This document shows positions 14,061 to 59,740 of a DNA stretch of 64,000 nt, piece by piece. This stretch comes from an uncultured Pirellulales bacterium (GTDB taxonomy: Bacteria; Planctomycetota; Phycisphaerae; Sedimentisphaerales; Anaerobacaceae): the NCBI GenBank assembly GCA_964494805.1, contig CAZBST010000007.1, forward strand, positions 44,493-108,492, read 5' to 3'. The stretch's first letter is position 1, and every line of letters starts with the position of its first letter. Position numbers and translations under genes: made by a program. The notes under the pieces are model-generated. The model was given only the letters and a program-made list of their open reading frames with translations. It did no database searches and was not told the DNA's origin.

Positions 14061-14201
14061 TTAGCCCCGCCAACACCTTGGCGGGGTTCGCAGTTTCGGT
14101 TAGCCCTGCCGCTTGCGGCAGGGGTTATTGTGCAGAGGGGACGGCAATCTCAAAAATTTTAGCCCCCTGCATCGCAGGGGATTACTTAGCTAACGACTAA
14201 T
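14061..14201 (+). repeat. GC-hairpin module (ttagcccc-hairpins plus GCGGCAATCTCAAAA core), copy A
   Basis: Contains the hairpins ccccgccaacaccttggcgggg, ccctgccgcttgcggcaggg and cccctgcatcgcagggg, plus gacggcaatctcaaaaatttt. A homologous module lies at 22719-22801. Confidence 0.75.
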
Positions 14202-14303
14202 TTGCTGTTGTGTCCTCCAGTTCGGCCCTCTTTTTTACTTACTCCGTCCTGCGGACTGCGTAATACACTGGTTCCTCATTGCGGCCTCCGGAAGCAACAG
14301 CAA
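14202..14303 (+). repeat. R1: 102-nt element with 9-bp terminal inverted repeats (TTGCTGTTG...CAACAGCAA), copy A
   Basis: ttgctgttgtgtcctccagttcggccc...tccgtcctgcggactgcgtaata...cattgcggcctccggaagcaacagcaa. Four copies occur in the window. Confidence 0.9.
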
Positions 14304-14312
14304 ACAAAATCT

Positions 14313-14337
14313 GTCATTCCCGCGCAAGCAGGAATCC
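14313..14337 (+). repeat. R2: 25-nt palindromic hairpin repeat GTCATTCC-YGCG-YAAGC-RGGAATCC
   Basis: gtcattcccgcgcaagcaggaatcc, located 9 nt after R1 copy A. Four copies occur in the window. Confidence 0.85.
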
Positions 14338-14440
14338 ATTCCTTTTCTTATCATCACCGCACTAGTTGCGGCGGAGGTTATGCCATAGCCAGACCGAGGC
14401 CGAGAAGTAAGAGCGTGGCTAATTCGGGGATAGGGGTGAT

Positions 14441-15355
14441 TTAAGATTCTCCATTTTCAAGCAAGTTGTCATAAAACTTTTTCCTTTCTTCTTTCTGTAT
14501 TTTTTTAGCCACATCTAAAGGAAATTGCTTCTCATAATATTCTTTTTCAGATTCCTTTTCAGATAAAGACTTGCTTTGAATTTTTTCGCCTAACCATTGA
14601 ATATCTTTGCCTTCTTCTCGATACTCAAATGCAGTTTTTTGTTGAATTATAAAAAAATGCATTTTTGAACTTAATTCTTTACGTAGGTACTTCCAATGCT
14701 TAGCAAAATGGTGGTCATTTGCACTAGATCCATATATTGTATCTTGTGTTGTGGGGTGATTATGTATGTGAAGTACCAATGAAGATTCACGCATCATACT
14801 TAATAATTTATATTGTTCTTCTTTTTCGGGTTCATAATACACTCTGTCAGGCAGTCCAATATATTTTGAGATATTATTACTTGCTATGCCTTTTGCTCGT
14901 AACCAAACAGGGTTTCTTTCGAAATCAGATGGGATAAGAACCCAAAAAGCTTCTTCAACACCTTGGAAACCAATTTTTTCACAAGCTTCAGTTAAAATCT
15001 CAACGATTTTTGTCTTGGAAACTTTTAACAATTCAGTATTGGCCTGATATTTATCAAATTGAGATGATATTGCTTCAATCTCGTCTCTGTCGCTTGGTTT
15101 CATTTGAACTAATAATTCTTTTTCATCTTTAGGAGTGGGATCAAGCTGTTGCATAAAGTATTTTGCAACAATTTTAATATCTTTATCACCCTCTATAAGC
15201 GCCCAATAAAGAAGTCTTTTTTGGTCATCGTTTGAAAGATTATTGAAGAAAATTTTGGACCTGCCTGGATCGCCATAACGGTATAGCGATTCAATTCCAT
15301 TTTTAAAAAGAAAGATTTTGTCTCGCAATTCGTCTGTGCTTAGCCTCTTGTCCAT
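14441..15355 (-). CDS. RadC-like JAB/MPN-domain protein with an unknown N-terminal extension
   Basis: 304 aa. EEAFWVLIPSD ... SSLVLHIHNHPTTQDTIYGSSANDHHFAKHW resembles the RadC/JAMM pattern (E..., HxH, S-x-x-D), but the His-to-Ser spacer is longer than canonical. The gene is strongly AT-rich. Confidence 0.55.
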   Translation of the reverse strand: MDKRLSTDELRDKIFLFKNGIESLYRYGDPGRSKIFFNNLSNDDQKRLLYWALIEGDKDIKIVAKYFMQQLDPTPKDEKELLVQMKPSDRDEIEAISSQFDKYQANTELLKVSKTKIVEILTEACEKIGFQGVEEAFWVLIPSDFERNPVWLRAKGIASNNISKYIGLPDRVYYEPEKEEQYKLLSMMRESSLVLHIHNHPTTQDTIYGSSANDHHFAKHWKYLRKELSSKMHFFIIQQKTAFEYREEGKDIQWLGEKIQSKSLSEKESEKEYYEKQFPLDVAKKIQKEERKKFYDNLLENGES

Positions 15356-15462
15356 TTTAATTTTTTACCATCCTATCCAGAAAGTTTTATCTCTTCTTTT
15401 AGTATAAGAATTTCCCATTGCTTCTTCAACACTCTTTAATTCGCCCTTGTTGGTTTCGATGG

Positions 15463-15837
15463 CTACTGTGTTTTGCGCCAGATCCAAATAGTAACAAGTA
15501 GAGAAATTACAGAGACCGCTACAGCGACTAAAGCCGAAAATGCTGAGAGCCATGTAGCTGATGCCATTTTTCTGGTATATTGATCAGTTCGCTTGTTTTG
15601 AATCCATTTCTGTATTTGCTCAAATGTTTGGGGATAAGTAAGCGGTATACAATGTATATCGGCGGAATGTTTAGGCAGACCTATAGACTCAGATAGTTTC
15701 AATAATTCCTGACCTTTCTGCTCTTTGGTATTTTTCTTATCTTTTACTATGTGAAGCAATTTCTGTTCGACTTCTTCTATTGTTGGCTCTGATGTCTTAC
15801 TGTTCTTATCCTGACATTCTGATTTTGCTTTGCACAT
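15463..15837 (-). CDS. Small C-terminally membrane-anchored protein, unknown function
   Basis: 124 aa with a charged Lys/Glu-rich N-terminal part and a C-terminal TM (WLSAFSALVAVAVSVISLLVTIWIW). AAGGAG lies 6 nt upstream of the ATG. AT-rich like the JAB gene just downstream. Confidence 0.55.
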   Translation of the reverse strand: MCKAKSECQDKNSKTSEPTIEEVEQKLLHIVKDKKNTKEQKGQELLKLSESIGLPKHSADIHCIPLTYPQTFEQIQKWIQNKRTDQYTRKMASATWLSAFSALVAVAVSVISLLVTIWIWRKTQ

Positions 15838-16099
15838 TAAATTCTCCTTATGGTTATTAAAGGTACTCTGGTTCAGTTTTTAACGGCCAACAATGCTTAT
15901 GCAGCCTGTTTTGGTAAATGCGAAAACCGTCTTTTCATTAGATAACATTATTGCCGATTAAAGTCAGAGAATAAATGGGAAATTGCGTTGAGGTTGCAAA
16001 AATCAATCAAAAGCGCAGCTACCCGCACACCAAAAACGGCTAATTTTAGATTTTTTTACTCCTTTTCTCACAATGAGTTACGAGAACCGAGTGACGAGA

Positions 16100-16150
16100 G
16101 ACGATAACCTTTTTCGCATCAAACGCGCAAGTCCATCCAATCATAGAGAG
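16100..16150 (+). repeat. R5 module, partial copy (ttttcgcatcaaACGCGCAAGTCCatccaat)
   Basis: Shares the core ttttcg..ca...cgcgcaagtcc.tc.aat with 25262-25296 and, inverted, 51645-51680. Confidence 0.6.
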
Positions 16151-16286
16151 ACGGTCTCTCTTTAAAGGAATCGCCAATGCCATCCGGCTAACTCAAATAA
16201 ACATTTATCAATAATCAATAATCGATAATCAATCGTCCGTCATAGCGATAGCGAAGATGGATACGAAGGTTGTTTGCGCGGAAGGG

Positions 16287-16433
16287 GAAAATCAATCAAA
16301 ATGAACAAAATTATGCAAAACGAACCCAATTTTAGAAATGCCAAAAATGACTGTAACTTTAGTAACAGCAATGACTACGAACTATGAACAACGAACTATG
16401 AACTCTTTAAAACAAACCCAATCAAACCCAAAT
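16287..16433 (+). repeat. R4 module (~145 nt; aaaatcaatcaaaatgaac...aaaacgaacccaatttt.gaaatgccaaaaatg...acaatgacta...)
   Basis: Aligns by eye with 25483-25600 (+) and with the reverse complement of 51282-51427. Confidence 0.8.
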
Positions 16434-16436
16434 AAT

Positions 16437-16470
16437 CTCCCCGCGAAGCGGCTCCGCAATTTTGCATTTT
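16437..16470 (+). repeat. R6 short hairpin repeat (ctccccgcgaagcggctccgcaattttgcatttt)
   Basis: Its reverse complement recurs at 56652-56685, between convergent PEP-CTERM genes. Confidence 0.7.
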
Positions 16471-16493
16471 ACACTTTGATTTTTAATTTTCTT

Positions 16494-21608: not shown

Positions 21609-21626
21609 TTTTTATCCACTAATACT

Positions 21627-21651
21627 GTCATTCCTGCGTAAGCAGGAATCC
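21627..21651 (+). repeat. R2 hairpin repeat
   Basis: gtcattcctgcgtaagcaggaatcc (perfect ATTCCTGC/GCAGGAAT stem), 5 nt beyond the stop of the HAD gene. Confidence 0.85.
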
Positions 21652-21655
21652 AGAT

Positions 21656-22561
21656 TTATCTTTCCCACGCCGGCTTTTCCGGCAAGCTCGCCCCGAATTC
21701 CATTACCAGCTTCTGCTCGTATCCGCCTGCGTATTGACCCTTGATAAACCTGTCGAACGCCTCCACGTAAAATCGCTTCCACGACTCCGTCTCTTTGCCC
21801 GGAACCACCGGAAAGAATAATGCGTTATTTGCCCTCGCCGCCTTCATATCGCCCGGTGCGTCGCCAATCATCAAAACGCACTCTTTCTCATATTTACCCT
21901 TAGTTGCATACTCAAGATGCTGCGCCTTTGTTCCCATTTCCTGTCCCGCTATTACATCGGTATACTTGGCGATGTCGTGTTCCTCCCACTCCCGCAAAAG
22001 AGCCTCACCGGGCGTAGCTGAAACAACAACTACATCAGCTAAAGGCCTGATTTTCTCCAGGCTCTCCCGCACGAACGGAAATGGCGGCACGCCCTTTACG
22101 ATGTCCGTAACTGCCTGGTTGACCTTTTTGCTCCAGTCCAGCACCTGCTCTAATTCTTTTTTCACCTGCAGGTCTTCCGTCTCCGCTATCGCCCTTTTAA
22201 GTCCATCATTGCTCAAAACGCTTTTCGGGTCGTCCACCCACGCGAAATAATATGGCAGTTGCGGCACCTCAAAACCTCTTTGCTTGACCATCGGATGGCA
22301 AGGCAGCAACTTTTCTAATATGAGTTTAAGTGTTTTATGCCGGTTGGCTCCTCGCGTCTTTGAAAAAAGGTCGGCAAAGTCCTTACACTCTCTCGCCGCC
22401 TGCGCGACCGGCTGCAGGCCGAAGCATCCTATCATCCACGGGCAGAAACATTCCCGATGCTTAATCCCCATCGTATCAAACGCGCACCCGTCCGAATCAA
22501 TCCCGACAAAGAATTTATTCCTCGGCTTAAATTCCTTCAATGCTTTCGCCGCATCTGTCAT
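21656..22561 (-). CDS. HAD-superfamily hydrolase
   Basis: 301 aa. FVGIDSDGCAFD is the DxDx(T/C) nucleophile motif; MIGDAPGDMKAA is HAD motif IV. Confidence 0.7.
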   Translation of the reverse strand: MTDAAKALKEFKPRNKFFVGIDSDGCAFDTMGIKHRECFCPWMIGCFGLQPVAQAARECKDFADLFSKTRGANRHKTLKLILEKLLPCHPMVKQRGFEVPQLPYYFAWVDDPKSVLSNDGLKRAIAETEDLQVKKELEQVLDWSKKVNQAVTDIVKGVPPFPFVRESLEKIRPLADVVVVSATPGEALLREWEEHDIAKYTDVIAGQEMGTKAQHLEYATKGKYEKECVLMIGDAPGDMKAARANNALFFPVVPGKETESWKRFYVEAFDRFIKGQYAGGYEQKLVMEFGASLPEKPAWER

Positions 22562-22566
22562 TTTCT

Positions 22567-22591
22567 GTCATTCCCGCGCAAGCGAGAATCC
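22567..22591 (+). repeat. R2 hairpin repeat (variant)
   Basis: gtcattcccgcgcaagcgagaatcc. On the minus strand it ends 5-6 nt before the HAD start codon. Confidence 0.8.
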
Positions 22592-22718
22592 AGTTGTTTT
22601 TTACCGCAGAAACCGCAAAATACGCAGAGATTGCTTTATATTTTTTCTCTGCGGTCTCAGCGTCCTCAGCGGTAAGACACCTTACAATTTTCCCCCGCTT
22701 TTATCAAGTCTTTTCGGG

Positions 22719-22801
22719 TTAGCCCCGGCACCTGTGCCGGGGGTCATTGCGAGCGCAGCGCGGCAATCTCAAAATGTTTAGCCCCGCAATTTATTGCGCG
22801 G
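22719..22801 (+). repeat. GC-hairpin module, copy B
   Basis: ttagccccggcacctgtgccggggg tcattgcgagcgcagcgcggcaatctcaaaatgtt tagccccgcaatttattgcgcgg. Same order as 14061-14201, directly preceding R1. Confidence 0.75.
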
Positions 22802-22903
22802 TTGCCGTTGTGTCCTCCAGTTCGGCTCTCTTTTTCATTTACTCCGTCCTGCGGACTGCGTAATACTAATGTTCCTCATTGCGGCTTCCGGAAACAACAG
22901 CAA
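22802..22903 (+). repeat. R1 102-nt TIR element, copy B
   Basis: About ten mismatches against copy A by eye. Left flank of the Panacea-HD cassette. Confidence 0.9.
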
Positions 22904-22972
22904 CTAGGGAGCTTTTATCTGCTCCAAAATACCTAAATTAATGAAGATTTTAAAAATAATAATATAAAAAGT

Positions 22973-23053: not shown

Positions 23054-23548
23054 ATGGATAGGCAACAAATAAGCGTAAAGCTTACCATCGATGGTTTGAA
23101 GCTGCCATTCAAAATAGATAGCTTTGAAGACCGTCTGATATTGCAAAAAGCTGTTTATCTAGCACAAACAGCAGGAATAAATTTAGGCTACTACTATCAG
23201 TGGTATCTTTATGGCCCGTATTCTCCGTCCCTCACCCAAGACGAATATGCTATCGATATGGACATTTCAACAGGGCTGGATGAATCCAGAAAGTGGAAAC
23301 TGGACGACGCCTCGCGTAGACGATTAGGAGAAATACAAGCAATCTTTACGGAGCCCCAGAGAAACAAGCTCAGGAGGAAGCTGGAGTTGTTGGCATCAGT
23401 CCACTTCTTGATTGACCGCAAGCAAGTCCCCGGAGCAAATACTAAGCAGATCACTGAAACTTTGAAACGGTTCAACAAAGATTTCAGCGAGGAGGAAGTC
23501 AACGGGGCGTTGGGGGGGCTGAAAACTTATGGTCTCCTCCAAAGGTGA
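23054..23548 (+). CDS. Panacea/DUF4065 (SocA-like antitoxin domain)-like protein
   Basis: 164 aa. RLILQKAVYLAQTAGINLGYYYQWYLYGPYSPSLTQDEY fits the DUF4065 pattern as I recall it (KLQKLLY.aq ... W..GPv.p..Y). It overlaps the downstream gene by 20 nt. Confidence 0.5.
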   Translation: MDRQQISVKLTIDGLKLPFKIDSFEDRLILQKAVYLAQTAGINLGYYYQWYLYGPYSPSLTQDEYAIDMDISTGLDESRKWKLDDASRRRLGEIQAIFTEPQRNKLRRKLELLASVHFLIDRKQVPGANTKQITETLKRFNKDFSEEEVNGALGGLKTYGLLQR

Positions 23549-24935
23549 TGGCTTAGGAAAATCCATCGCTGATCCAATTCATGGCAATATACTGCTAAAA
23601 AAACGTGAAGTAAAAGTCATAGATACACCATCTTTTCAACGCCTGCGTCAACTTAAACAACTTGCAATGGCGCAATTGGTGTATCCATCTGCAACACTCA
23701 CTAGGTTTACTCACAGCATCGGTGCTTTGGGAACAATGATACGGATCATTCATGCTGCTAGGGATAATGGTATCGAATTTAAAGATGAAGACGAAGATAA
23801 TCTCCGACTTGCGGCACTTCTACACGGTATCGGACACTATCCATATTCCCACTTGATGGAAAGCGTAGACAGAGTCAACCTAATTGAGGAACAGGTTGAT
23901 GGAGCAACAATACCCACCAAAAAGGCACCGTATCCCGACCATGTAGAGGTCGGAACAATAATTGCTGCTGGTCAGGGCGACTTGATTAATGCTATTGGCG
24001 GAGAAAACAGGGCCAAAGCGGTGGCAGCTATTTTTGCACGAACAGAAGCAGCAGACCTACAATTGAGCAAACTTATTCATAGCAGCTTCGACATAGATAG
24101 ACTGGATTATTTACTACGAGACTCCTATGCTACCGGAGTCCCTTATGGACAAATAGATATTAATTACCTGCTAAATAATTTAAAAGTAAGTCCGCAACGG
24201 GTAGTCGGTTTTAAAGAAAAGGCATTAGCTGCGGTGGAACATTTTCTTTTGGCTCGATTTTTTATGTACCGCGTAGTCTATTACCACAAAACAATTTACG
24301 GAATGGAGGAGGTGTGTCGCCAATTACTAAGGCGTCTTAGGGATCGTGATGGAGAGAAATATGGCTTGCCCGCTGACGGAGAGGAAATCAAGAATTTGGT
24401 TAAATCACCAAAACTAACCACGTTCACCGATGCTTTTGTAGATAATATTATCCAAAAAGCTGTTAACGATGAAGAACCAATTGTCCGAACTCTAGCGAGA
24501 GCAATACAGAGCCGAAATCCTCCTAAGTTACTGAAGGAAGTTCCGGTGTGCGAAGAAGCAGCTAAAAGGTCCCACACTGGTAAAACTTTCATCCAAAATT
24601 GTAAGGAAAAATTGAAAGATTTAGCTAAGTCCTCTAAAATACCCCTTAAGCAATTTTTACTTTGCGAAATTATACTGCCTATAATCAAACAACCAAAAAA
24701 ATTCACTGCAACCGAAGTAGCTAAGCTTGGGCTGCAAGAAATCTATGAGATGGCATACGAAGAAGAAGGAGAAGATATCAAGATTTTTACTGCTGATAAG
24801 AAAGAACCAACATCGCTGATGAAAACAGAACACAGTTTGGTAGTTAAATATTGCAAGTTATTCACTTCAAATCTTTCGTCTTTATGTAGTTTACGAAAGC
24901 GAGGACAGGGAAGGCATTGTTGCGAAATTGCGTAA
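23529..24935 (+). CDS. SAMHD1/dNTP-triphosphohydrolase-like HD-domain protein with a degenerate HD dyad (HG)
   Basis: 468 aa with IADPIHGNI..., FQRLRQLKQL, YPSATLTRFTHSIGA, LAALLHGIGHYPYSH (canonical LLHDIGHGPFSH) and FDIDRLDYLLRDSYATGV. The C-terminal roughly 200 aa have no motif I recognise. Confidence 0.7.
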   Translation: MVSSKGDGLGKSIADPIHGNILLKKREVKVIDTPSFQRLRQLKQLAMAQLVYPSATLTRFTHSIGALGTMIRIIHAARDNGIEFKDEDEDNLRLAALLHGIGHYPYSHLMESVDRVNLIEEQVDGATIPTKKAPYPDHVEVGTIIAAGQGDLINAIGGENRAKAVAAIFARTEAADLQLSKLIHSSFDIDRLDYLLRDSYATGVPYGQIDINYLLNNLKVSPQRVVGFKEKALAAVEHFLLARFFMYRVVYYHKTIYGMEEVCRQLLRRLRDRDGEKYGLPADGEEIKNLVKSPKLTTFTDAFVDNIIQKAVNDEEPIVRTLARAIQSRNPPKLLKEVPVCEEAAKRSHTGKTFIQNCKEKLKDLAKSSKIPLKQFLLCEIILPIIKQPKKFTATEVAKLGLQEIYEMAYEEEGEDIKIFTADKKEPTSLMKTEHSLVVKYCKLFTSNLSSLCSLRKRGQGRHCCEIA

Positions 24936-24974
24936 AAAGGTTAAAGACTGGGATAAAGCTTAATCTTTCTCGAT

Positions 24975-25076
24975 TTGCTGTTGTGTCCTACAGTTCGGCC
25001 ATCTTTTTTATTTACTTCGCCCTGCGGACTGCGTAATACTAACGTTCCTCATTGCGGCCTCTGGAAACAACAGCAA
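24975..25076 (+). repeat. R1 102-nt TIR element, copy C
   Basis: Same orientation as copy B. Starts 12 nt after the end of an alternative-frame tail of the HD gene. Confidence 0.9.
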
Positions 25077-25085
25077 AATAAAATT

Positions 25086-25110
25086 GTCATTCCTATGAAA
25101 GCAGGAATCC
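25086..25110 (+). repeat. R2 hairpin repeat (variant)
   Basis: gtcattcctatgaaagcaggaatcc, 9 nt after R1 copy C. The spacing matches locus A. Confidence 0.8.
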
Positions 25111-25145
25111 AGTTTGAAAAGCCCCCGCGGCAATTGAGCGGGGTA

Positions 25146-25296
25146 AAATCAATCATTTGCGCAGGGGGTTAAACCCCCTAAAATCCATTTTTTCGAAAAT
25201 TTTTTATCCCTTTATCTATAACGACTTAGCCAAAATCGCACCTCTGAAAATTCCAGAATTTTCGACAAATTCGCGCAAGTCCGTCAAATTATAGAA
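25146..25296 (+). repeat. R5 module (~150 nt)
   Basis: aaaatcaatca...aaaatccattttttcgaaaattttttatccctttatctataacgacttagccaaaatcgcacctctgaaaa...ttttcgacaaattcgcgcaagtccgtcaaatt aligns with the reverse complement of 51645-51795. Confidence 0.8.
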
Positions 25297-25482
25297 GGGA
25301 CGAATTCTGTCCCAAATCGCCCAGCAGGGCGATGGTCTTGGGGCCGGCAGGCCCGGGTCAGAAACGACTTAGCTGTTTTTAATCTTGTAGTGGAGTTTAG
25401 CCGTTTGTAAGACCAACGGAAACCCCATCGGAGACTCTCTATCAACAATGAACTGTAAAAGAGTTAAAACGGTTAACCGTTC

Positions 25483-25600
25483 AAAACAAACCCAATTTTA
25501 GAAAAACCAAAAATGCTTATAAGTGTATTAATTACAATGACTAATAACAAAAATGAACGTTCAACCAACTTTGAAAAACGAACCCAAACAAAGCCAATTT
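25483..25600 (+). repeat. R4 module
   Basis: aaaacaaacccaattttagaaaaaccaaaaatgcttataagtgtattaattacaatgactaataac...aaaaacgaacccaaac. Confidence 0.8.
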
Positions 25601-25623
25601 ATGGTGAGCCTGTCGAATCCATT

Positions 25624-50306: not shown

Positions 50307-51281
50307 ATGAACCCGGGAAAAGATAAACCCTTAGCACAGCTTACATGGCTTATCCCTATCGCATTAATAGCCGTGGCCTTGCTCATAGTCCTTGTCGACA
50401 TATTTCTTCCTGGAAGCAGGATATTATATTTCGCATGGCTCCTTATTGCTCTAGCGCTTTTGGCGGTAGTTTCTTTGATACTCTTAAAAACATTTAAAAT
50501 TCTCAACTCACTTACGGAAAACGACACGAAGCTCGAAAAAATAGCCGAGACACTGGAAAAGAGCCGCTCTGTTTTGACACAAATCAACCAAAACACCCGC
50601 CTCAGCGAAGCAGCAAAAGCGGTTGCATTCCGCGATGCAGACATACAGTCCCTCAGGGAGGCCGTTTTTGATAAGCTCCAGCAGCAGGATTTCGATGCCG
50701 CCTACGAAGTGATTGATGAAATCGCCCTCCATATTGAGTATAAAAACCTGGCTGAGCAGCTACGGACTCAGGCAAACAATTACCGCGATGCAACCGACAC
50801 CGAAAGGGTAAATCAGGTCATATCGCATATCGAAAAGCTCTTTGAAAGCTCTCAGTGGGCCAAAGCCAGCGCCCAGATTGAAAGGTTAATCAGAGACTTT
50901 CCCAAATCCGAAAATGCAAAAGCAATGCGGCAGAAACTGCTCGATAAAAAAGAAGAGCGGAAAAAAATATTGCTCAACGCCTGGGATGATGCCATAAAAC
51001 GTCAGGCCACCGACCGAAGCCTGGAGATTCTAAGGGAGCTGGACCTCTACCTTACTCCAAATGAAGGGTTGGCTTTACAGGAAGCTGCAAAGGACGTTTT
51101 CAGAAACAAGCTGCACAACCTCGGCGTCCAATTCTCTCTGGCTGTATCCGGAAAACAATGGGCAAAAGCGATTGAGGCCGGCGAGCAGATTATTCACGAC
51201 TTCCCAAACAGCAAAATGGCCGAGGAAATTCACGAAAAGTGGGACATCCTGAGGCAGAAAGCCGAGCAGAGAGACAATTAA
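50307..51281 (+). CDS. Membrane protein with two N-terminal TM segments and a helical repeat (TPR-like) C-terminal domain
   Basis: Starts at MNPGKDKPLAQLTWLIPIALIAVALLIVLV. A second TM (FAWLLIALALLAVVSLILL) is followed by a long helical region. Confidence 0.55.
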   Translation: MNPGKDKPLAQLTWLIPIALIAVALLIVLVDIFLPGSRILYFAWLLIALALLAVVSLILLKTFKILNSLTENDTKLEKIAETLEKSRSVLTQINQNTRLSEAAKAVAFRDADIQSLREAVFDKLQQQDFDAAYEVIDEIALHIEYKNLAEQLRTQANNYRDATDTERVNQVISHIEKLFESSQWAKASAQIERLIRDFPKSENAKAMRQKLLDKKEERKKILLNAWDDAIKRQATDRSLEILRELDLYLTPNEGLALQEAAKDVFRNKLHNLGVQFSLAVSGKQWAKAIEAGEQIIHDFPNSKMAEEIHEKWDILRQKAEQRDN

Positions 51282-51427
51282 AATTGGGTTCGTTTGGGTT
51301 CGTTTTTGAGCTTGGCCGTTTTAAGTTTTTGGTTATTAGTCATTGTAATTACTACATTTACAAGCATTTTTGGCATTTCGAAAATTGGGTTCGTTTTGCA
51401 TTTTTTTGTTCATTTTGATTGATTTTT
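51282..51427 (-). repeat. R4 module, inverted copy
   Basis: The reverse complement reads aaaatcaatcaaaatgaacaaaaaaatgcaaaacgaacccaattttcgaaatgccaaaaatgcttgtaaatgtagtaattacaatgactaataacc... Confidence 0.8.
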
Positions 51428-51644
51428 CCTTCCAGCGCAGAAAATCTCCGTATCAACCGCAGAGGGCGCAGAGAACGCAGAGGAACAAGTTATAAATGGT
51501 ATTAGCTGTTTATCCGTAACCGCTCATTGGTAATTCCTTTAAAAAACTATCCCCCGCTACTTCGCTTCGGCGAAGTAAGACGACGGGGGCGACCCCCTTT
51601 AGAGTAAACGGCACTCTATACAAAGGGGCAGGCGAAGTGTCGTC

Positions 51645-51795
51645 TACAATTGGAGGGACTTGCGCGATTGATGCGAAAATTGTGGGGTTTTCAGAGGTGT
51701 GGTTTTGGCTAAGTCGTTATAGTTAAAGGGATAAAAAAATTTTGAAAAAATGGGTTTTAGGTATGGGGGTATCTGCGCTTTTGATTGAAGTTTAA
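51645..51795 (-). repeat. R5 module, inverted copy
   Basis: The reverse complement aligns with 25146-25296 (…cattttttcaaaatttttttatccctttaactataacgacttagccaaaaccacacctctgaaaa…ttttcgcatcaatcgcgcaagtccctccaatt). Confidence 0.8.
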
Positions 51796-51836
51796 CCGCT
51801 GAGAACGCAAAGAGCGCAGTGATTTTTAGATCTAAG

Positions 51837-51938
51837 TTGCTGTTGTTTCCGTAAGCCGCAATGAGGAACATCAGTATTACGCAGTCCGCAGGACGAAGTA
51901 AATAGGAAAGATGGCCGAACTGGAGGACACAACAGCAA
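51837..51938 (-). repeat. R1 102-nt TIR element, copy D (inverted)
   Basis: ttgctgttgtttccgtaagccgcaatgaggaac...cgcagtccgcaggacgaagtaaat...ggccgaactggaggacacaacagcaa is the reverse complement of the R1 consensus. Confidence 0.9.
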
Positions 51939-52027
51939 ATTTTAAGGATTGGAGAGGGAAGATTTCAGTAGGTGGCAATGCCACATAGCGCGGACATTTG
52001 CGTAGGTTTTTAGACACAGATTAGTTT

Positions 52028-55000
52028 TTATAACTGGGCGTTCAATTCTTCTAACCAATCCTGCAGCGTTTCTGCAAATTCCTGCCAGGCCTGTTCGCCC
52101 TGTTCTTCAATCATCATTTCTTTAAGTTGCTCATCGGAGAGCAGCTCCTGGAGACACTCTATGTTATTGTTTATCTCTTCTTCATCAATCTCTTCTTCGA
52201 TTTGTTCCGCCTGGGGTTGCGGTTGGGGTTCTGGTTGTAGCTCAGGTTCAGGTTGCGGCGGCTCAGGCGCAGATTGTTCAGGAGGTTGAGATTCAGGCTC
52301 GGGCTGTAGTTCGATTTGCGGTTGTTGAGGTGATGATGCGTAAAAGGCTCCGCCGAAGCCATCGCCCATTGACGTTTCTTCGCCTAACTGCAGGAGCCAA
52401 TAATCACAGAAGCGAGCGAGGTCGTCCATATCGATTATATCATTGTGGGGGACTGAGATATCGCAGACGGGATTGTAGTCCGGCTGTTCTGAGCTTGTCA
52501 GCCAGGCCTGGGCGAAAACTGCAAAGTCATAAAAGTCAACGACGCAGTCCGGCTTAAAGTCGCCTACCGGATAGCATCCAGGAAAACACCTCATCCCTAA
52601 ATACAGCCGAATATCCTCAAAGAACACGGTGCCATCGCTTTCAGCCGGCGTACCGTCGCCGAAACCGATAATAATTTTCTTAACATCGGCCAGATTTACG
52701 TCATTATCATCAACGAAATCCTGCAGGACAATATTCCACTGGTGCCATTCTTCCTCTGTTATGTCGCTCATATAGGGATATTCCACTTTCCCGGTAGCGT
52801 CTTCGCCATCGGTTAGTTTCACATACATCTGCTGGTTGGCGTCATTGGTTGCTATGCCATAGAACCACAGCGACAATACTTTAGCGCCCATATCAAGCCA
52901 ATTCGGGTCTTTTCCAAGGTCGTCCAGCTGCGCGGTATTAACATCTGCTCTGGCCTCAGAATAGTATGGCCCATACGAATAATTCAAGAAATTATACCTC
53001 ATCGAATATCCACTGCGGCTCGGCCCCGACACATTAGAAACTATCGCGCAGGTGTAGGGGAGGTCCTGGGTCCAATAATCCTTCCATGTATCCCTCAGCC
53101 TATCAGGGTAAAAGGCACCATACGTCTTATTAAAATTGTCTATGAGATAGCAATCCGTCGTAAAGCCCCATACACTACCTCTCCATACGTTAGAGTCGTT
53201 GACTTCGTCGATACGCCAATAGTAAGTTGTCCCTAATTCAATTTTATTGGCCTCGATTGGATAAGAGGGATTGGAAACCGGGCCTTTATAAACTTCGCCG
53301 AGCGGCCAGGAGTTATTGGCATCGTTGACATCGTTGAAATTGGTGCCGAAGTAGATTTCGTGGCCATTAAGAGCGGCAGCAAAATATCCCGAGCACCAGG
53401 TGAGGTTGAGGTTAGGTTCGCCAGTGCATAAAAAATCAGATAATTCCCCGCAGGTCGGGTTGGGGTTACTTGCGCAGAGGACAGGTGTATGTTCACGAGT
53501 CCAGCGGGAATAATTACCGCCACTGATTTTGCATAAATTTGTGATTGAACCATAAGACGGGATGCAATCATTTACTTTTGCCGTTAACGTAACAGAATTC
53601 GATTCATTCGGTTCCAATGTGCCGATGTTCCAGGTAACGGTGTGAGTGCTGGGGTGATAAACACTATTTGGGCCGGAGGCGGAGATAAAGGCGAGGTCAT
53701 CAGGCAATAAATCAGTAATTACAACATCGTTGATGGTACCTATATAGTTAGGGTCGCCAACAGGCGGATTGAGGTAACTGATGGTATAATTTACATCATT
53801 GCCGGGGAGGACACCATTGGCGTCAGCGATATTATCAACCTTATTCAGAGATAGACCTAATGCGTTGGCAATGGCGAGAGCGTTGAAAAGATTTAGTCGG
53901 CCTCCTGTAACGCAAAGACCATTCAAAGCAGATTTTTGGTCAACAGAATTGAGAATAATATCTTTTACATTAAGATGAATCAGAGTTGGATTAATCGACC
54001 AGACAAGTGCAGCGGCCCCTGCAACAAACGGGGTAGACATTGATGTCCCGTCCTTATAATTGTATTGTCCGTATACCGCGCAGCTTAAGATATTCGACCC
54101 AGGCGCAGCCAAATCAACAGAAGTAAGACCCCAGTTTGAGCTTCCCGAGGCCCATATCGACCGCACATCATTAGAATCAGAAGCCATTACCGAGATGATG
54201 TTGCTGCAATCAAAACGGGCTGGATAAGATGGATATGAGTAACCATCGTTCCCTGCAGCCGCTATGAATAAGACACCCATCGCATTAGCGACATCAATGG
54301 CATCCTTCAACTCCTGGTCATATTCATAGCTACCCCACGAGTTGCTCAGGACCTTTGCTCCTTTATCAATAGCATATTCAATACAGGAGATGGCATTTGC
54401 TGTCGAACCCCCTTCACCCAAATCGTTTAGAAACTTCAAGGCCATTATCTTTACATTCCAGCAGACGCCCGTAACGCCCTGAGAATTGTTGCCCACAGCA
54501 CCTATTATTCCTGCGCAATGAGTGCCGTGCCCATTGTCATCCATCGGGTCACTGTCATTGTTATAGAAATCATACCCGAAACTACCATTGGAGTCTGTCC
54601 ACATATTGGCTGACAAGTCTGGATGGGTGTAATCAACGCCGGAGTCGATAACAGCCACGATAATGTTACTATCTCTTGTGATATACCAAGCCTCGGGCGC
54701 ATCAATATCGGCATCCGGCGTTCCGCCGGTCTGGCCTGTGTTGTGCAGTCCCCATTGGTCGCCGCCGTTAGGAACAGGACCGCAGGGGTCGTTGGGGAAG
54801 GTCGAGAAAGCATGATAGATGTAATTCGGCTGAATATGGATAATATCTGATGAGGTACCGAAAGTTGCTAAGGCAGATTCTACAGATATTCCTTGAGGTA
54901 ATTTAACCAAGCTTAATTCCGGAACGAGCTTGTAACTTCGAACTATGGAGCCGCCGCCCAAAGATGAAAGAATTTCTGCCTTCTCTCCTGCACTGCGTTG

Positions 55001-55147
55001 CTCCCCATTATCTTTTAACTTGAAGCGCACAAGTACCTCACTGGGAACATAGTTCGGCTCGATAGCTGAACCGGCAGATGATATGAATAAAAAAGAAGAT
55101 GTAATTACCATGATGATTATATTTCTGGACATGGGGTGATTCTCCAT
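52028..55147 (-). CDS. Secreted multidomain subtilisin-like serine protease (S8) with I9 propeptide, dockerin-like repeats and an acidic P/E/Q-rich tail
   Basis: 1039 aa with a signal peptide. Catalytic triad motifs are VAVIDSGVDYTHPDL, HGTHCAGIIGA and GTSMSTPFVAGAAAL. Also a TYYWRIDEV...WGFTT module. GDFKPDCVVDFYDFAVFAQAWL and DIIDMDDLARFCDYWL look dockerin/EF-hand-like. The tail reads QPQIELQPEPESQPPEQSAPEPPQPEPELQPEPQPQPQ. Start could be Met at 55132. Confidence 0.85.
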   Translation of the reverse strand: MENHPMSRNIIIMVITSSFLFISSAGSAIEPNYVPSEVLVRFKLKDNGEQRSAGEKAEILSSLGGGSIVRSYKLVPELSLVKLPQGISVESALATFGTSSDIIHIQPNYIYHAFSTFPNDPCGPVPNGGDQWGLHNTGQTGGTPDADIDAPEAWYITRDSNIIVAVIDSGVDYTHPDLSANMWTDSNGSFGYDFYNNDSDPMDDNGHGTHCAGIIGAVGNNSQGVTGVCWNVKIMALKFLNDLGEGGSTANAISCIEYAIDKGAKVLSNSWGSYEYDQELKDAIDVANAMGVLFIAAAGNDGYSYPSYPARFDCSNIISVMASDSNDVRSIWASGSSNWGLTSVDLAAPGSNILSCAVYGQYNYKDGTSMSTPFVAGAAALVWSINPTLIHLNVKDIILNSVDQKSALNGLCVTGGRLNLFNALAIANALGLSLNKVDNIADANGVLPGNDVNYTISYLNPPVGDPNYIGTINDVVITDLLPDDLAFISASGPNSVYHPSTHTVTWNIGTLEPNESNSVTLTAKVNDCIPSYGSITNLCKISGGNYSRWTREHTPVLCASNPNPTCGELSDFLCTGEPNLNLTWCSGYFAAALNGHEIYFGTNFNDVNDANNSWPLGEVYKGPVSNPSYPIEANKIELGTTYYWRIDEVNDSNVWRGSVWGFTTDCYLIDNFNKTYGAFYPDRLRDTWKDYWTQDLPYTCAIVSNVSGPSRSGYSMRYNFLNYSYGPYYSEARADVNTAQLDDLGKDPNWLDMGAKVLSLWFYGIATNDANQQMYVKLTDGEDATGKVEYPYMSDITEEEWHQWNIVLQDFVDDNDVNLADVKKIIIGFGDGTPAESDGTVFFEDIRLYLGMRCFPGCYPVGDFKPDCVVDFYDFAVFAQAWLTSSEQPDYNPVCDISVPHNDIIDMDDLARFCDYWLLQLGEETSMGDGFGGAFYASSPQQPQIELQPEPESQPPEQSAPEPPQPEPELQPEPQPQPQAEQIEEEIDEEEINNNIECLQELLSDEQLKEMMIEEQGEQAWQEFAETLQDWLEELNAQL

Positions 55148-55194
55148 AAAAGAATATTCCCTTATTCCAACGTGACCGGTCCCGAGTGCACGGG

Positions 55195-55782
55195 TTAACC
55201 TATGCGGCTATGACTTTTGCGCCGAATAATCTGCGTAAATCCAGAGACAAGTAATATAAAAGTAGCTGGCTCAGGGATGACCGTCCCTTCGACAATCAAT
55301 GTCGCATCATTCAGCACAACAGAACCGTAATCAATATAGTGCCATCCACCTGTACCAACGAATGAGATATGGCTAATCCTAATATTGCCTTGGCCGTCAA
55401 GAAGGTCCGACCAACTGGATGTTGGTGAAAGCGAGAATTGTGAAATTCTGTCAAAAATCTCTGGTTCTGGATCAGTTTCGGCCCCGCCCCATATTTCTGT
55501 AAGTCGAGGCCATGGATTAGAACCCAAGGATGCACGGATTCCTACATCCAGAGGAAACGGGTTGCAGGGGTCGGTGTCATATACCGCCAGACCAGCGGTG
55601 ATTCCACCCGACCAGTCGATATAAACGTGCGATATTTCACTAAAAGTAACTCCGAGGTTGAAATCTGCTTGCCAATATGAATTGAAACCATACGTTCCCG
55701 CACAGTTCAAGGGCAGTTCGACGGTATCGCCCAAAGCTACTCCCGCCATTGCAAGTATTATCGCAATAATCGCATATTTCAT
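55195..55782 (-). CDS. PEP-CTERM sorting-signal protein P1
   Basis: 195 aa with a signal peptide. C-terminus VIPEPATFILLVSGFTQIIRRKSHSRIG: PEP motif, then TM, then a basic tail. Confidence 0.8.
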   Translation of the reverse strand: MKYAIIAIILAMAGVALGDTVELPLNCAGTYGFNSYWQADFNLGVTFSEISHVYIDWSGGITAGLAVYDTDPCNPFPLDVGIRASLGSNPWPRLTEIWGGAETDPEPEIFDRISQFSLSPTSSWSDLLDGQGNIRISHISFVGTGGWHYIDYGSVVLNDATLIVEGTVIPEPATFILLVSGFTQIIRRKSHSRIG

Positions 55783-55914
55783 TTTTGCCTCCTCAACTTA
55801 CGCTTTTAACCTTTACATTATTATACCACATTTTGACCTCCCAAAACAACTAAAAATCAAGATAAAGGCCTCATTTTCCACTATTAAGATGCAGAAAAGG
55901 GGGGAAGTGTTCCC
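55776..55914 (-). repeat. Promoter/leader repeat L1, copy 1 (upstream of P1)
   Basis: About 139 nt, nearly identical to 57242-57380. The minus strand contains TGgTATAAT and GAGGAGG 5 nt before the ATG. Confidence 0.85.
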
Positions 55915-56006
55915 TTAACTTTCTTGAATTATAAAAAGGTTGCCAGAAATGAGGGAGTTTTTGAGGCCTTTCATGTTATTATCTGGTGATTAGAGGCAGT
56001 ACTTTC

Positions 56007-56035
56007 TTGACATTTTCATGTCAATCAAATAAAAT
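56007..56035 (+). promoter_or_regulatory. 18-bp palindrome TTGACATTTTCATGTCAA overlapping a TTGACA-17-TAAAAT promoter for P2
   Basis: ttgaca ttttcatgtcaatcaaa taaaat. The palindrome spans 56007-56024 and recurs at 58784-58801. Confidence 0.5.
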
Positions 56036-56108
56036 ATTTTGTGAGTAGTTTTTTGGTATGCCCCACTCGTTGAGGAAGCGGTTATTTCGTAGTATAAGGG
56101 AGGCAGGC

Positions 56109-56564
56109 ATGAAACGATTATTGCCAATAGCTATTATTATGATAATAATATTTTGCCCTCTGAAAACAGCGAAGGGAATTCTGATAGAAGATGTACATAC
56201 GGATCCGATCGAACCAAAAGATGTAGACATCATTACGATAGTTGTTTCCGGGATAGGTGGAACTCCAACTTGGATAGATGATTCTGATTTTCGAATAGAA
56301 GATACCTCTCTCGAACTCGATATCTTTTTAAGGTTTGGCCCTTACGGAGCGATATCACCATGGTCTCATTCAGAGATAATCGGGACGCTGCCTGCGAATT
56401 ACTATGACCTTGCCGTAAGTGCATATGTTTATAATGATTTAACCGAGATATATGAGTTTAGAGAAACATATTCAACCGGATTCACCGTTGTTCCGGAACC
56501 GGCGACATTGCTGCTATTGACTATGGGAGCGGTTTGGATTCGAGCAGGAAAACGCAGAACGTAA
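56109..56564 (+). CDS. PEP-CTERM sorting-signal protein P2 (paralog of P4)
   Basis: ATG 56109 with GGGAGG upstream, and a signal peptide. C-terminus FTVVPEPATLLLLTMGAVWIRAGKRRT. Confidence 0.8.
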   Translation: MKRLLPIAIIMIIIFCPLKTAKGILIEDVHTDPIEPKDVDIITIVVSGIGGTPTWIDDSDFRIEDTSLELDIFLRFGPYGAISPWSHSEIIGTLPANYYDLAVSAYVYNDLTEIYEFRETYSTGFTVVPEPATLLLLTMGAVWIRAGKRRT

Positions 56565-56651
56565 CATCAAAAAATGGCGGCTGTCCCCATAGAAGAAATT
56601 TAAAAATCAATCCGTCTTTGCTGTGCTACGCCGAGACGCTGCGCGAATGCA

Positions 56652-56685
56652 AAAATAAAAATTGCGGAGCCGCTTCGCGGGGATT
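56652..56685 (-). repeat. R6 short hairpin repeat, inverted copy
   Basis: aaaataaaaattgcggagccgcttcgcggggatt, close to the reverse complement of 16437-16470. Lies between the convergent stops of P2 and P3. Confidence 0.7.
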
Positions 56686-56696
56686 TTTAGAAGTGA

Positions 56697-57248
56697 TTAA
56701 ACGATTCTTTTTCTTGTTAAATAAATTATGCCGCCAAGGAGTAAGGCCAATGAACTTGGTTCGGGAACAACAACTATTGGGACTGAAACCATACTATCAT
56801 AATCAGGTTCTGGTGCACCGCCGTCCAATCCGCCAATTACATCGTATTCGCCAACATTTATTAGATTGTCTTCGCTGTCCCGCATATCCCATATATAAGG
56901 AGGGTCAAAATCAGGAAACTCTTTATATTCACCGGGGGCCAATGTAAACATAGTAGGCTTGGCATACCAACCCTCTACGGCTGACCAAATATTTTCCCCA
57001 TCCTTTTCGACCCAGAAGTTCCATGCGGGACTACCGCCAAAATAAAATGTTACATCCTCACTTCTCAAATTGGTTACTCTATAAAGCATTTCTACATCTT
57101 CGCCTAAATCGTAAGTAGATTTATTCGTCTGGACGTAGTATTCGATGCCATCTTCAATTATGGAATTTGAATTAATTGTTGCCATTGCGATGGGGGTTAC
57201 CCCAAATACCAGCACCATAAGGGAGATTGCAGAGATTACCTTTTTCAT
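56697..57248 (-). CDS. PEP-CTERM protein P3 with a BsuPI-like (intracellular proteinase inhibitor fold) domain
   Basis: 183 aa. TYDLGEDVEMLYRVTNLRSEDVTFYFGGSPAWNFWVEKDGENIWS...FTLAPGEYKEF...GEYDVIG matches the BsuPI pattern as I recall it. C-terminus VVVPEPSSLALLLGGIIYLTRKRIV. Confidence 0.6.
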   Translation of the reverse strand: MKKVISAISLMVLVFGVTPIAMATINSNSIIEDGIEYYVQTNKSTYDLGEDVEMLYRVTNLRSEDVTFYFGGSPAWNFWVEKDGENIWSAVEGWYAKPTMFTLAPGEYKEFPDFDPPYIWDMRDSEDNLINVGEYDVIGGLDGGAPEPDYDSMVSVPIVVVPEPSSLALLLGGIIYLTRKRIV

Positions 57249-57380
57249 TTTTGCCTCCTCAACTTACGCTTTTAACCTTTACATTATTATACCACATTTC
57301 GACCTCCCAAAACAGCTAAAAATCAAGATAAAGGCCTCATTTTCCACTATTAAGATGCAGGAAAAGGGGAAACTGTTCCG
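57242..57380 (-). repeat. Promoter/leader repeat L1, copy 2 (upstream of P3)
   Basis: Differs from copy 1 at only a handful of positions (for example tttTgacc/tttCgacc and acaActaa/acaGctaa). Confidence 0.85.
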
Positions 57381-57405
57381 TAAATTCAATCAAAATTCTT
57401 AAAAA

Positions 57406-57996
57406 TTACGTTATCAGATAACCGTTGTTATCGTCGTCTATGCCGTTACCGGGAATTTCTCCCGGGTTAATCCACATATTTGCTTTCAGGTCAGGGTGAG
57501 TGTAGTCAACGCCAGTGTCAATTACAGCAACGATAATGTTACTGTCGGTGGCGATGTCCCAAGCCACCGGCGCATCAATGTCGGCATCGGATATTCCTCC
57601 GGTTTGGCCAGTGTTGTGTATTCCCCAGAGCTGACTAAAATATGGGTCGTTGGGAAGCGTTGAATAGCGTTTAATTTTATAGTTAGGTTCTACATACAAG
57701 ATTTCGTCGGTATTTTTAAATAAGGAGAGAGCGTTTTCGACTGTCTGATTTTCAGGTAGCTTTACTAAGGTCAAGCCTGGAACAAATCTCATAGATTTTT
57801 TTATTGTGCCTGCACTAAAGGCAGCCAAAATCTGATTACATTCGTGGATAGTCCGCTGAACTCCTGTGGTTTTTGGGGCGAATCTTACGAGTAATTCACC
57901 TTCCTTGTAAGGCAAATCTGAGGCTCCGGCATAATTTGAGATGAATACAAAACAAATAACAGAGATATAAAGATATCCACATCCTTTTTTAGACAT
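57406..57996 (-). pseudogene. Truncated S8 subtilase paralog (signal peptide, I9 propeptide and the Asp box only)
   Basis: 196 aa, collinear with the N-terminus of the 1039-aa protease (…NTGQTGG.SDADIDAP.AW....DSNIIVAVIDTGVDYTHPDLKANMW…). It stops at DDDNNGYLIT, before the His and Ser boxes and about 25 nt from the L1 repeat boundary. Confidence 0.6.
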
Positions 57997-58045
57997 AAAA
58001 TGACCCTCCTTGAGATAAGGTTAAATTTATTCTGGTTTTGCTTAA

Positions 58046-58540: not shown

Positions 58541-58672
58541 ACTCCATCTCCTTCAAACAGCAGCCCTATAGACTGGACTACTCATTCAATTAACCGCTTC
58601 CTCGTTATAGCGTGGTATATTTATACCCTATTTTACCACTGCCTGAGCCGTAAAGTCAAGAGAAAAAACGCA
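58541..58672 (-). repeat. Promoter/leader repeat L2, copy 1 (upstream of P4; TTGACT-18-TAAAAT at 58630-58659)
   Basis: The minus strand reads cTTGACTttacggctcaggcagtggTAAAATagggtataaatataccacgctataacgaggaagcggttaattgaa... It is homologous to 59583-59734. Confidence 0.7.
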
Positions 58673-58783
58673 AGCATATCTTGTTATAAGATGCGCAAAA
58701 GCGGTTAAATGTTCCCATAATTTTCCTTAAATCTGTAAAGAATAACCGGACGAAAAATGGTGGCTGTTCCTAGTTTCCCTCCC

Positions 58784-58986: not shown

Positions 58987-59021
58987 GCCATCACTCCCTC
59001 GATAGTTAATTGATGTTCGAA

Positions 59022-59734: not shown

Positions 59735-59740
59735 TATGTG

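Follow-up and report, generated by a model that had tools for sequence, protein, structure and literature searches.

Introduction

Detailed accounts of mosaic repeats that mark gene exchange exist mainly for Neisseria, as Neisseria intergenic mosaic elements (NIMEs), and for enterobacteria, as bacterial interspersed mosaic elements (BIMEs). Here we describe repeat mosaics in the DNA of an uncultured planctomycete (contig CAZBST010000007.1 of assembly GCA_964494805.1, positions 44,493 to 108,492). This whole stretch of 64 kb is called the window, and within-genome repeat counts refer to it. It holds three mosaics, A (13.9-16.5 kb), B (24.9-25.6 kb) and C (51.3-52.0 kb, on the opposite strand), with non-coding stretches of 0.6-0.75 kb composed of modules named R1, R2, R4 and R5 and of GC-rich hairpins. 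We found that the conserved part of these mosaics is a unit of two modules, R5-R4, of about 0.42 kb with sharp ends, and not the whole composite. The explanation that we favour, with modest confidence, is that the mosaics are lineage-specific non-autonomous R5-R4 insertion elements which mark hot spots of accessory genes in the manner of NIMEs and BIMEs, and whose boxes are predicted protein-binding sites.

In NIMEs, dRS3 inverted repeats (ATTCCCN8GGGAAT) flank RS elements and the arrays have been proposed to be recombination hot spots; according to that work, no such arrays had been seen outside Neisseria (PMC1797815). Repetitive extragenic palindromes (REPs) have been reported in Planctomycetes. 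The described REP tags are GTAG or CGTC, and a recombination or landing role was proposed for REP/BIME clusters (PMC3733652). Our literature search found no description of mosaics of the present kind in Planctomycetes.

The window represents core chromosome and carries dnaE, metG, tmk-holB-PSP1, clpC, trpS, scpA, prfB, pepA and gnd; its host is a Phycisphaerae/Sedimentisphaerales-like planctomycete. The nearest 6-phosphogluconate dehydrogenases are 84-97% identical and all metagenomic, and the named ones belong to metagenome-assembled genomes (MAGs) of Phycisphaerae, Sedimentisphaerales or Planctomycetota. Some of the MAG contigs bearing these relatives are 2.5-6.2 Mb long. An earlier note on this DNA had called the mosaics large for a compact genome, for which there is no basis in a planctomycete host whose relatives have contigs of up to 6.2 Mb.

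Repeats in the window were detected by repeat finding and blastn self-comparison. For comparison we used 99 related metagenome loci (handles beginning with L), anchored on 6-phosphogluconate dehydrogenase, the MetX-MetW protein (MetXW) and a 330-aa protein beside mosaic C. R4 and R5 were searched with nhmmer profiles and R1 with a covariance model in 955 kb of related DNA. Junction positions are approximate since the closest relatives are several percent divergent from the window.

The R5-R4 unit

The order R1-(R2)-R5-R4 is common to A, B and C, far beyond chance. This agrees with the earlier note, whose module positions we could reproduce to within a few bases by repeat finding and self-comparison. 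Positions 24973-25295 of B and 51940-51643 of C were 75% identical over 327 nt (blastn, E 2e-56), R4 of B and R4 of C were 81% identical (E 1e-26), and the R1 copies were 86-91% identical to each other (E about 1e-35). These E values and the excess of a motif described below exclude coincidence, and the possibility that the mosaics are unrelated low-complexity sequence was not borne out. Mosaic C shows R1-R5-R4 in the same order on the opposite strand, as had been noted, and R2 is missing from it. Mosaic A is indeed split by AT-rich coding DNA, i.e. two minus-strand open reading frames (ORFs) between R1/R2 and R5. Its R5, taken before for a remnant, is a full-length copy (134 bits). The composites are non-coding, again as had been stated.

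Across genomes, the unit that had been described as hairpins-R1-R2-R5-R4 is reduced to R5-R4, while R1 is rare and R2 and the hairpins are independent of it. R5 and R4 were adjacent, in the same order and on the same strand, in 11/11 cases from at least 10 samples (nhmmer; A, B and C of the window, L009, L013, L018 twice, L035, L045, L053 and L065). R4 without R5 was found by nhmmer at contig ends or in L019, L059 and L092.

R5 measures about 170 nt and R4 about 120-175 nt, and each forms a repeat family, both inside a genome and across genomes. In the alignment of 16 R4 copies from at least 10 samples we observed a single AACRAASCCAA box on the left and a tandem pair on the right, all three in direct orientation, with a spacing fixed at 91-92 bp plus 10 bp in every copy. 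The window has 9 occurrences of this motif against 0.24 expected, and 8/9 lie within the three R4 copies. The R4 top strand is A/C-rich and G-poor. R5, aligned from 12 copies, has three conserved boxes, namely TCAATCAAAAGCGCAG, an A/T tract with TATCCCTTT, and TTTTCGCATCAAACGCGCA. A GC hairpin is inserted in the R5 copy of B at 25165-25182. The micro-repeat ACGAACTATGAAC recurs within some R4 copies and in L025.

R5-R4 has neither coding potential nor conserved RNA structure, and it lacks terminal inverted repeats. With RNAalifold, R4 gave 0 conserved pairs on either strand (16 copies), and R5 gave 0 pairs on the forward strand and at most 6 pairs, with -0.57 kcal/mol, when both strands were folded (12 copies). 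There was no Rfam match at the gathering threshold in the 64 kb, and permissive Rfam scans of B and C returned chance-level matches only. The stem of R1 showed no covariation beyond shuffled controls. A structured RNA was rejected for these reasons. A small peptide encoded by R4 was also rejected, since there was no codon periodicity and the ATG of A, B and C was not conserved, being replaced by ACG, TTG or TAG in L009, L019, L035 and L045. Two antisense shadow ORFs, 25513-27327 (+, 604 aa) opposite metXW and 16338-17123 (+, 261 aa) opposite a 410-aa gene, both begin at the same R4-internal ATG. It is not conserved in relatives and they are unlikely to be genes.

Empty and occupied sites in relatives

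The comparison of syntenic loci that the earlier note had proposed revealed presence and absence of mosaics and cargo among relatives at A and C. Sites were present in some relatives and absent from others, cargo was replaced, and the end of the element abutted stop codons (C and L024/L035). Insertion polymorphism was thus seen at all three mosaic sites, for B by way of the related metXW site, and relatives have 26-100 bp in place of the 2.5 kb (A) or 8.5 kb (C with its subtilase islet) of the window.

Site C lies between the 330-aa gene and a DUF2617 gene. In five relatives (L109-L113) the convergent DUF2617 gene is 37-42 bp past the 330-aa gene; in the window, where it occupies 59804-60349, the distance is 8.5 kb. 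Therefore, window 51282 to about 59767 is one 8.5-kb insertion. On the left (CAATTAA/AATTGGGTTCG, the slash marking the junction) the R4 terminus immediately follows the stop of the 330-aa gene (TAA/AATTGGG). On the right there is a reverse-strand TTAG hairpin, followed by sequence that aligns to the empty-site spacer of L109 and L113. The cargo, annotated with Pfam, includes a 1039-aa subtilase and PEP-CTERM proteins, together with small ORFs and duplicated fragments of genes.

Some further features of this region were seen. Islet C holds two PEP-CTERM proteins and internal duplications (55760-55918 vs 57226-57384, 90% identical; 58585-58668 vs 59647-59730, 92%), and N-terminal fragments of the subtilase (54598-54754 vs 57471-57627) are 80% identical. 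A neighbouring site between clpC and the 330-aa gene is also variable. It has restriction-modification genes in L109 (2532-6426) and L111 (317-2719), an N6_N4 methyltransferase with HinfI or MjaV, and two small ORFs in the window (49134-50288). No R5-R4 was detected at this site.

At site A, between the 410-aa gene and prfB, the distance is 100 bp in L014, about 180 bp in L016/L017 and 2.5 kb in the window. Homology to the empty site of L014 stops a few bases before the first hairpin of A. R4-R5 adjoins the same 410-aa gene in L009, L013, L018 and L019 (R4 only in L019), and the cargo is swapped: three small ORFs in L009, proteins of 494 aa and 182 aa in L018, and two 88-aa proteins in L019. 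The window cargo (304 aa, and 124 aa with a C-terminal hydrophobic tail) is absent from L014 and L016 and replaced in L009, L018 and L019. The GC content of islet A is 36-41% vs 46-50% in its flanks, and its ORFs matched no Pfam, NCBIfam or PADLOC family. The 304-aa protein (14441-15355, minus strand) holds HIHNHP...SSAND, which by eye is JAMM/MPN metalloprotease-like. A JAMM/JAB identity had no support from Pfam, PDB, NCBIfam or PADLOC and was not retained.

At the metXW site, MetX (homoserine O-acetyltransferase) and MetW are fused in a 614-aa ORF (window 25624-27468, minus strand), a fusion also seen in relatives. Where the metXW stop codon faces that of a convergent cbiO-like gene, the gap between the two measures about 29 bp in L020, L021, L058 and L062. 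In L053 it is 443 bp and is occupied by R5-R4 alone, between the two stop codons. In L065 it is 3.1 kb and contains R1-cargo-R5-R4 in the opposite orientation. R5-R4 is therefore a discrete insertion unit that entered one spacer in both orientations in different lineages. R4-R5 adjoins metXW in L024/L035, L045 and L053 with differing gene content alongside, and in L024/L035 the R4 terminus abuts the metXW stop (GATTAA/AATTGGC). In the window, region B (24936-25623) lies between convergent genes, with the end of an HD-domain gene at 24935 and the metX-metW stop at 25624. Its R4 end is 14-24 nt from this stop, and the 23 nt between them are a separate small repeat. The repeat, GTGAGC-N-TGTCGAA(C/T)C, was found between R4 terminus and stop at window 25601-25623, at 12775-12800 of L009, and in L019 and L045. 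At every site seen R4 faces the 3' end of a gene. Most sites are between convergent genes, which satisfy the rule in either orientation, and only two are informative, so we do not claim it as significant.

Upstream of B, the cargo encodes a 164-aa DarG-C-terminal-like protein and a 468-aa HD-domain (dGTPase-like) protein with GC of 40-44%. The HD protein had only one weak relative among the 99 related loci. The left border of this islet (23054-24935) is a further mosaic, D. The earlier note had recognised a smaller module here at 22719, which is real; the locus also holds a fourth R1 copy (22799-22905). Judging from composition, gene content and the related metXW site, the D/B islet is probably accessory. 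The claim that the mosaics occupy the boundaries of every accessory segment therefore stands for A and C by comparison with relatives and is likely for D/B; 'every' is an overstatement for a sample of three. A further variable slot lies between trpS and an 88-aa gene, which are about 4.4 kb apart in the nearest MetXW relatives, L020 (1086-5524) and L022 (1316-5491), and 288 bp apart in the window (27833-28120).

Overall, islets have 36-42% GC vs 46-50% in the flanks. Other cargo includes a phosphoribosyltransferase and a MerR-like protein in L065, and a PEP-CTERM protein in L018.

R1, R2 and the GC-rich hairpins

R1 is an element of 104-107 nt with inverted ends of 11+3 bp, TTTGCTGTTGTGTCC...GGAAACAACAGCAAA, which are paired in 5/5 full copies. 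Terminal inverted repeats of the type seen in MITEs, the miniature inverted-repeat transposable elements, were found for R1 alone. The covariance model detected four copies in the window, one in L065 and one cut at the end of L001, and R1 is rare and optional to the R5-R4 unit. Its orientation relative to R5-R4 is constant in A, B, C and L065. No direct repeats common to the four window copies and L065 flanked R1, i.e. we saw no target duplication. A protein-database search with a spurious ORF across R1-R2 yielded no further copies. In L001 (CAZDQP010000057.1, from a MAG labelled Pirellulales), R1 is truncated at the end of the contig, and AT-rich genes of the DUF4238 and DUF5677-like kinds lie beside it (5264-7183).

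R2 is a 27-nt palindrome, TGTCATTCCYGCGNAAGCAGGAATCCA, with the pattern ATTCC(C/T)-N8-AGGAAT, and fits dRS3 save for one position. In the window it starts at 14310, 21624, 22564 and 25083. It flanks R1 on one side only and never brackets R5 or R4. The hairpin type (GTCATTCC...GGAATCC) is present in six viral contigs of IMG/VR, where its flanks are unrelated (L003-L008), and in records of Neisseria, Photobacterium, Legionella, a Rickettsia endosymbiont, Azospirillum, Cupriavidus and Sphingomonas, with at least 40 places in one Photobacterium record. R2 is thus of a cross-phylum hairpin type similar to dRS3 of Neisseria. A stretch of 51 nt (window 25064-25114, i.e. R1 3' end, spacer and R2) was 86.5% identical to a NIME unit of Neisseria gonorrhoeae (L115 301-352, E 8e-6), so this match between a planctomycete and a betaproteobacterium extends beyond the bare R2 hairpin.

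Hairpins of 22-30 bp tagged with TTAG are located at 14061, 14100, 14159, 22719, 22778 and 59760 (the last on the minus strand). TTAGCCC starts at 14061, 14100 and 14159, and the bare 7-mer is not enriched on its own in the window. The block 14094-14166 matches 22712-22785. The hairpins differ between mosaics, which indicates that they were inserted independently. R2 and the GC-rich hairpins are thus separate REP-like palindromes, independent of R5-R4. The smaller modules reported before proved to be real as well (R2 at 21624 and 22564, hairpins at 22712-22785, R6 at 56648-56683, and 59743-59767). All features are collected in Table 1.

Table 1. Repeat modules and cargo segments in the 64-kb window.
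Feature	Position	Strand	Remark
Hairpins A, three TTAG-tagged, GC-rich, REP-like	14061..14190	+	prfB-side border of islet A
R1 copy A	14199..14305	+	covariance model, 124.7 bits
R2 hairpin A, TGTCATTCCCGCGCAAGCAGGAATCCA, dRS3-like short palindrome	14310..14346	+	repeat family
Cargo A, two AT-rich ORFs	14441..15837	-	ORFs 14441-15355 and 15463-15837
R5 copy A	15988..16161	+	nhmmer, 133.8 bits
R4 copy A	16263..16437	+	nhmmer, 137.1 bits; AACRAASCCAA boxes at 16319, 16411
R6, short hairpin module	16438..16473	+	inverted copy at 56648-56683
Solitary R2 hairpin, intergenic	21624..21660	+	repeat family
Mosaic D	22564..22905	+	R2 22564-22600, TTAG hairpins 22712-22801, R1 22799-22905
R1 copy D	22799..22905	+	covariance model, 126.9 bits
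Cargo D/B	23054..24935	+	between R1 of D and R1 of B; low GC
R1 copy B	24972..25078	+	covariance model, 128.7 bits
R2 copy B	25083..25119	+	repeat family
R5 copy B, AATCAATCA box at 25147	25135..25312	+	nhmmer, 149.8 bits
B spacer, variable, several unrelated GC-rich hairpins	25313..25481	+	not common to A or C
R4 copy B, boxes at 25485, 25577, 25587	25428/25482..25610	+	profile and repeat matches
R4 copy C	51278..51451	-	terminus abuts stop codon of 330-aa gene
R5 copy C	51628..51804	-	nhmmer, 154.3 bits
R1 copy C	51835..51941	-	covariance model, 129.6 bits
Cargo C	52028..59742	.	absent from five relatives
TTAG-tagged REP-like hairpin, far border of islet C	59743..59767	-	identical to 22777-22801

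A Logan short-read contig (L002, SRR14802572) is identical to window 16321-22772 and breaks off within R4 of A and within the hairpins of D, as is expected of multi-copy DNA. Elsewhere in the window, a 357-aa ORF (44916-45989, +) combines an RNase H domain with a formyltransferase domain, and this fusion is also found in relatives.

Comparison with described systems

By analogy, the system resembles NIMEs and BIMEs in its apparent function, and on inspection it does not fully fit either. As in NIMEs, repeat families of 50-175 bp form non-coding mosaics in which a short ATTCCC-N8-GGGAAT-type palindrome is interspersed. R1, R5 and R4 are RS-like repeat families, and syntenic sites adjoining genes vary between relatives. 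Both systems can be proposed as recombination hot spots. In contrast to NIMEs, the host belongs to another phylum, R2 does not bracket every module and is missing from C, so that the flanking by dRS3 is not found here, and R5-R4 is a fixed two-module unit with defined ends and not an open-ended array. Moreover, the slot holds whole foreign genes here and not alleles of one gene.

With REPs and BIMEs the mosaics share short GC-rich imperfect palindromes with a 5' tetranucleotide, clustered after gene ends. In one relative only (L018), a 182-aa Y1_Tnp/HUH protein is encoded amid the same hairpins. However, the tag here is TTAG instead of GTAG or CGTC, BIMEs contain nothing that corresponds to the long R5, R4 and R1 modules, association with islets is not a BIME feature, and the window has no REP-associated tyrosine transposase (RAYT).

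Small non-coding multi-copy insertions between genes are also typical for MITEs, mobile insertion cassettes and Correia elements. R1, of about 104 bp with 14-bp inverted ends, resembles a MITE, and some copies enclose passenger genes with no transposase. The composite and R5-R4, in contrast, have no terminal inverted repeats, no recognised target duplication and no known parent insertion sequence. With the possible exception of R1, these are not MITEs in the strict sense. With IS200/IS605 elements and palindrome-associated transposable elements (PATEs), R5-R4 shares asymmetric ends without inverted repeats or duplication. Also similar to IS200/IS605 are a hairpin followed by a tetranucleotide (…GGGGCTAA) at one islet end, insertion right after TTAA in two cases and a Y1 enzyme in one relative. 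Unlike in IS200/IS605, the R4 end has no conserved hairpin, the hairpin lies at the far islet end only, and the target is inconsistent. Under a uniform GC skew, the plus strand carries A and B and the minus strand C, so the orientation is not tied to the strand.

Explanations for the mosaics

If R5-R4 is an insertion element, it would insert in the short spacer directly after the stop codon of a gene. It would then form one border of a slot in which 0 to 8 kb of accessory genes may be gained, lost and exchanged, and TTAG-tagged hairpins would form the other border. R5-R4 and the REP-like hairpins could together serve as a landing or recombination zone for such genes. Some copies would bear R1, and REP-like hairpins, among them the dRS3-like R2, would have been added secondarily to all. 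The unit may be moved by a trans-acting enzyme or by homologous recombination. We infer that it promotes the turnover of cargo rather than merely accompanying it. One enzyme that may do so is a Y1 transposase of the RAYT-like kind, since L018 (15093-15641) encodes a 182-aa Y1/IS200-like protein with an HIHIV (HUH) motif, the sole recombinase found in the islets. It is barely above the cut-off for PF01797 (23.4 bits vs 23). Hairpins of the same types, including a reverse-strand R2, lie on both sides of its gene.

Several results weigh against an insertion element. Scanning of the window ORFs revealed no transposase or recombinase, and neither the window nor the other 98 loci contain a relative of the L018 protein. 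In local alignments of the R1 left end with the R4 right end, scores for inverted repeats of the composite or of R5-R4 were within those of shuffled controls. At the R5-R4 junctions we recognised neither a duplicated target nor a common target motif. Only 2 of about 11 R4 junctions follow TTAA; a TTAA target was rejected since it is present only at C and L024/L035 and the other junctions differ. The cargo lies between R1/R2 and R5 in A and L065, but in B/D and C it is found outside R1; the islets thus do not amount to a single, simply bounded transposon. The orientation of cargo genes relative to R5 is inconsistent as well, and R5 is thus not simply an outward promoter. Finally, an exact 19-mer of R1 occurred in a single further contig (L001) of the species-representative genomes and in no JGI metagenome.

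Another explanation is a passive origin, in which harmless spacers after genes independently collect unrelated small repeats (REPs, a MITE-like R1, R5-R4) and unrelated foreign genes, and the shared order in A, B and C reflects a few duplications of one composite and no functional unit. We think this unlikely, although it is the alternative to be taken most seriously. It fits the hairpins, which differ between copies and were independently inserted, and the R2-type hairpins, which occur solitary (21624) and across many phyla. Other variable sites do without R5-R4, such as the restriction-modification genes by clpC in L109 and L111, and neither an enzyme nor a target motif was found. Against it speak the joint occurrence of R5 and R4 in the same order and strand in all 11 cases, the defined ends of the unit and its solitary occurrence between two stop codons, the accessory islets that 3/3 mosaics of the window border, and the constant R1 orientation relative to R5-R4 in A, B, C and L065. 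At the opposite extreme, R5-R4 with the TTAG hairpins might represent a new class of transposase-less, cargo-carrying islets moved in trans. The mover would be a single-copy enzyme (RAYT-like Y1/HUH) or a recombinase reading the AACGAACCCAA boxes, and insertion would take place in either orientation within a few bases after a stop codon. This we regard as rather doubtful.

It is improbable that R5-R4 is a functional transcript or a cis-regulator, for example a small RNA, a 3' untranslated region, a terminator or insulator of the upstream gene, or a C-rich and G-poor Rho-loading tract that would prevent read-through into the convergent gene. The unit always comes directly after a gene 3' end, and the base composition of the R4 top strand would suit such a role. 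On the reverse strand, box 3 of R5 contains a sigma-70-like TTGNNN-18/19-GAAAAT motif, conserved by eye. An outward promoter was nevertheless not adopted, because cargo genes are co-oriented with the motif in only about 4/9. The absence of conserved pairs in R4, the at most 6 pairs in R5 and the lack of Rfam matches speak against a transcript, close relatives do without the unit at the same genes, and both orientations are found at the metXW/cbiO site.

Relic attachment sites of a prophage, an integrative and conjugative element or a satellite, whose integrase would be encoded elsewhere or have been lost, with the R4 boxes as arm-type integrase-binding sites, are just as improbable. The asymmetric ends without inverted repeats, the short direct boxes at fixed spacing, the place beside gene 3' ends and the variable cargo are what one would see. 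On the other hand, no integrase was found in any islet examined, no duplicated core was seen at the two islet borders, and R5-R4 occurs alone with nothing else inserted. True R4 or R5 matches were missing from IMG/VR, where scans with the R4 and R5 boxes gave only low-complexity matches, and from the phage collection, and the plasmid collection matched the R2 hairpin only. Integron-like cassettes, with R1 as attC and the islets as cassettes, came to mind since R1 is an imperfect palindrome of attC-like size and direct R1 copies flank the two-gene block 23054-24935. In the R1 ends, TTGCTGTTGTG...CAACAGCAA, GTT is the left and AAC the right element, which reverses R''(RYYYAAC)...R'(GTTRRRY) of attC and does not fit its consensuses. 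Neither an integrase gene nor a tyrosine recombinase was found among the window ORFs scanned, housekeeping genes separate the R1 copies, and most related islets have no R1. With the core sites in the wrong order and the integrase missing from the window, the attC reading is largely refuted and very hard to maintain.

Significance

Our results on R5-R4 as a probable insertion element bear on how these genomes are assembled and how they vary. The repeat family breaks short-read assemblies of these MAGs exactly at the most variable loci. Should the mosaics turn out to be a new class of islets moved in trans, they would be a general vehicle for the exchange of defence and accessory genes in uncultured Phycisphaerae. 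As a comparable mosaic system in uncultured planctomycetes, the one described here adds a 0.42-kb core, empty and occupied sites and an islet content that varies between genomes. Its coordinates provide a testable case of how genomes without obvious integrases exchange small blocks of accessory or defence-like genes.

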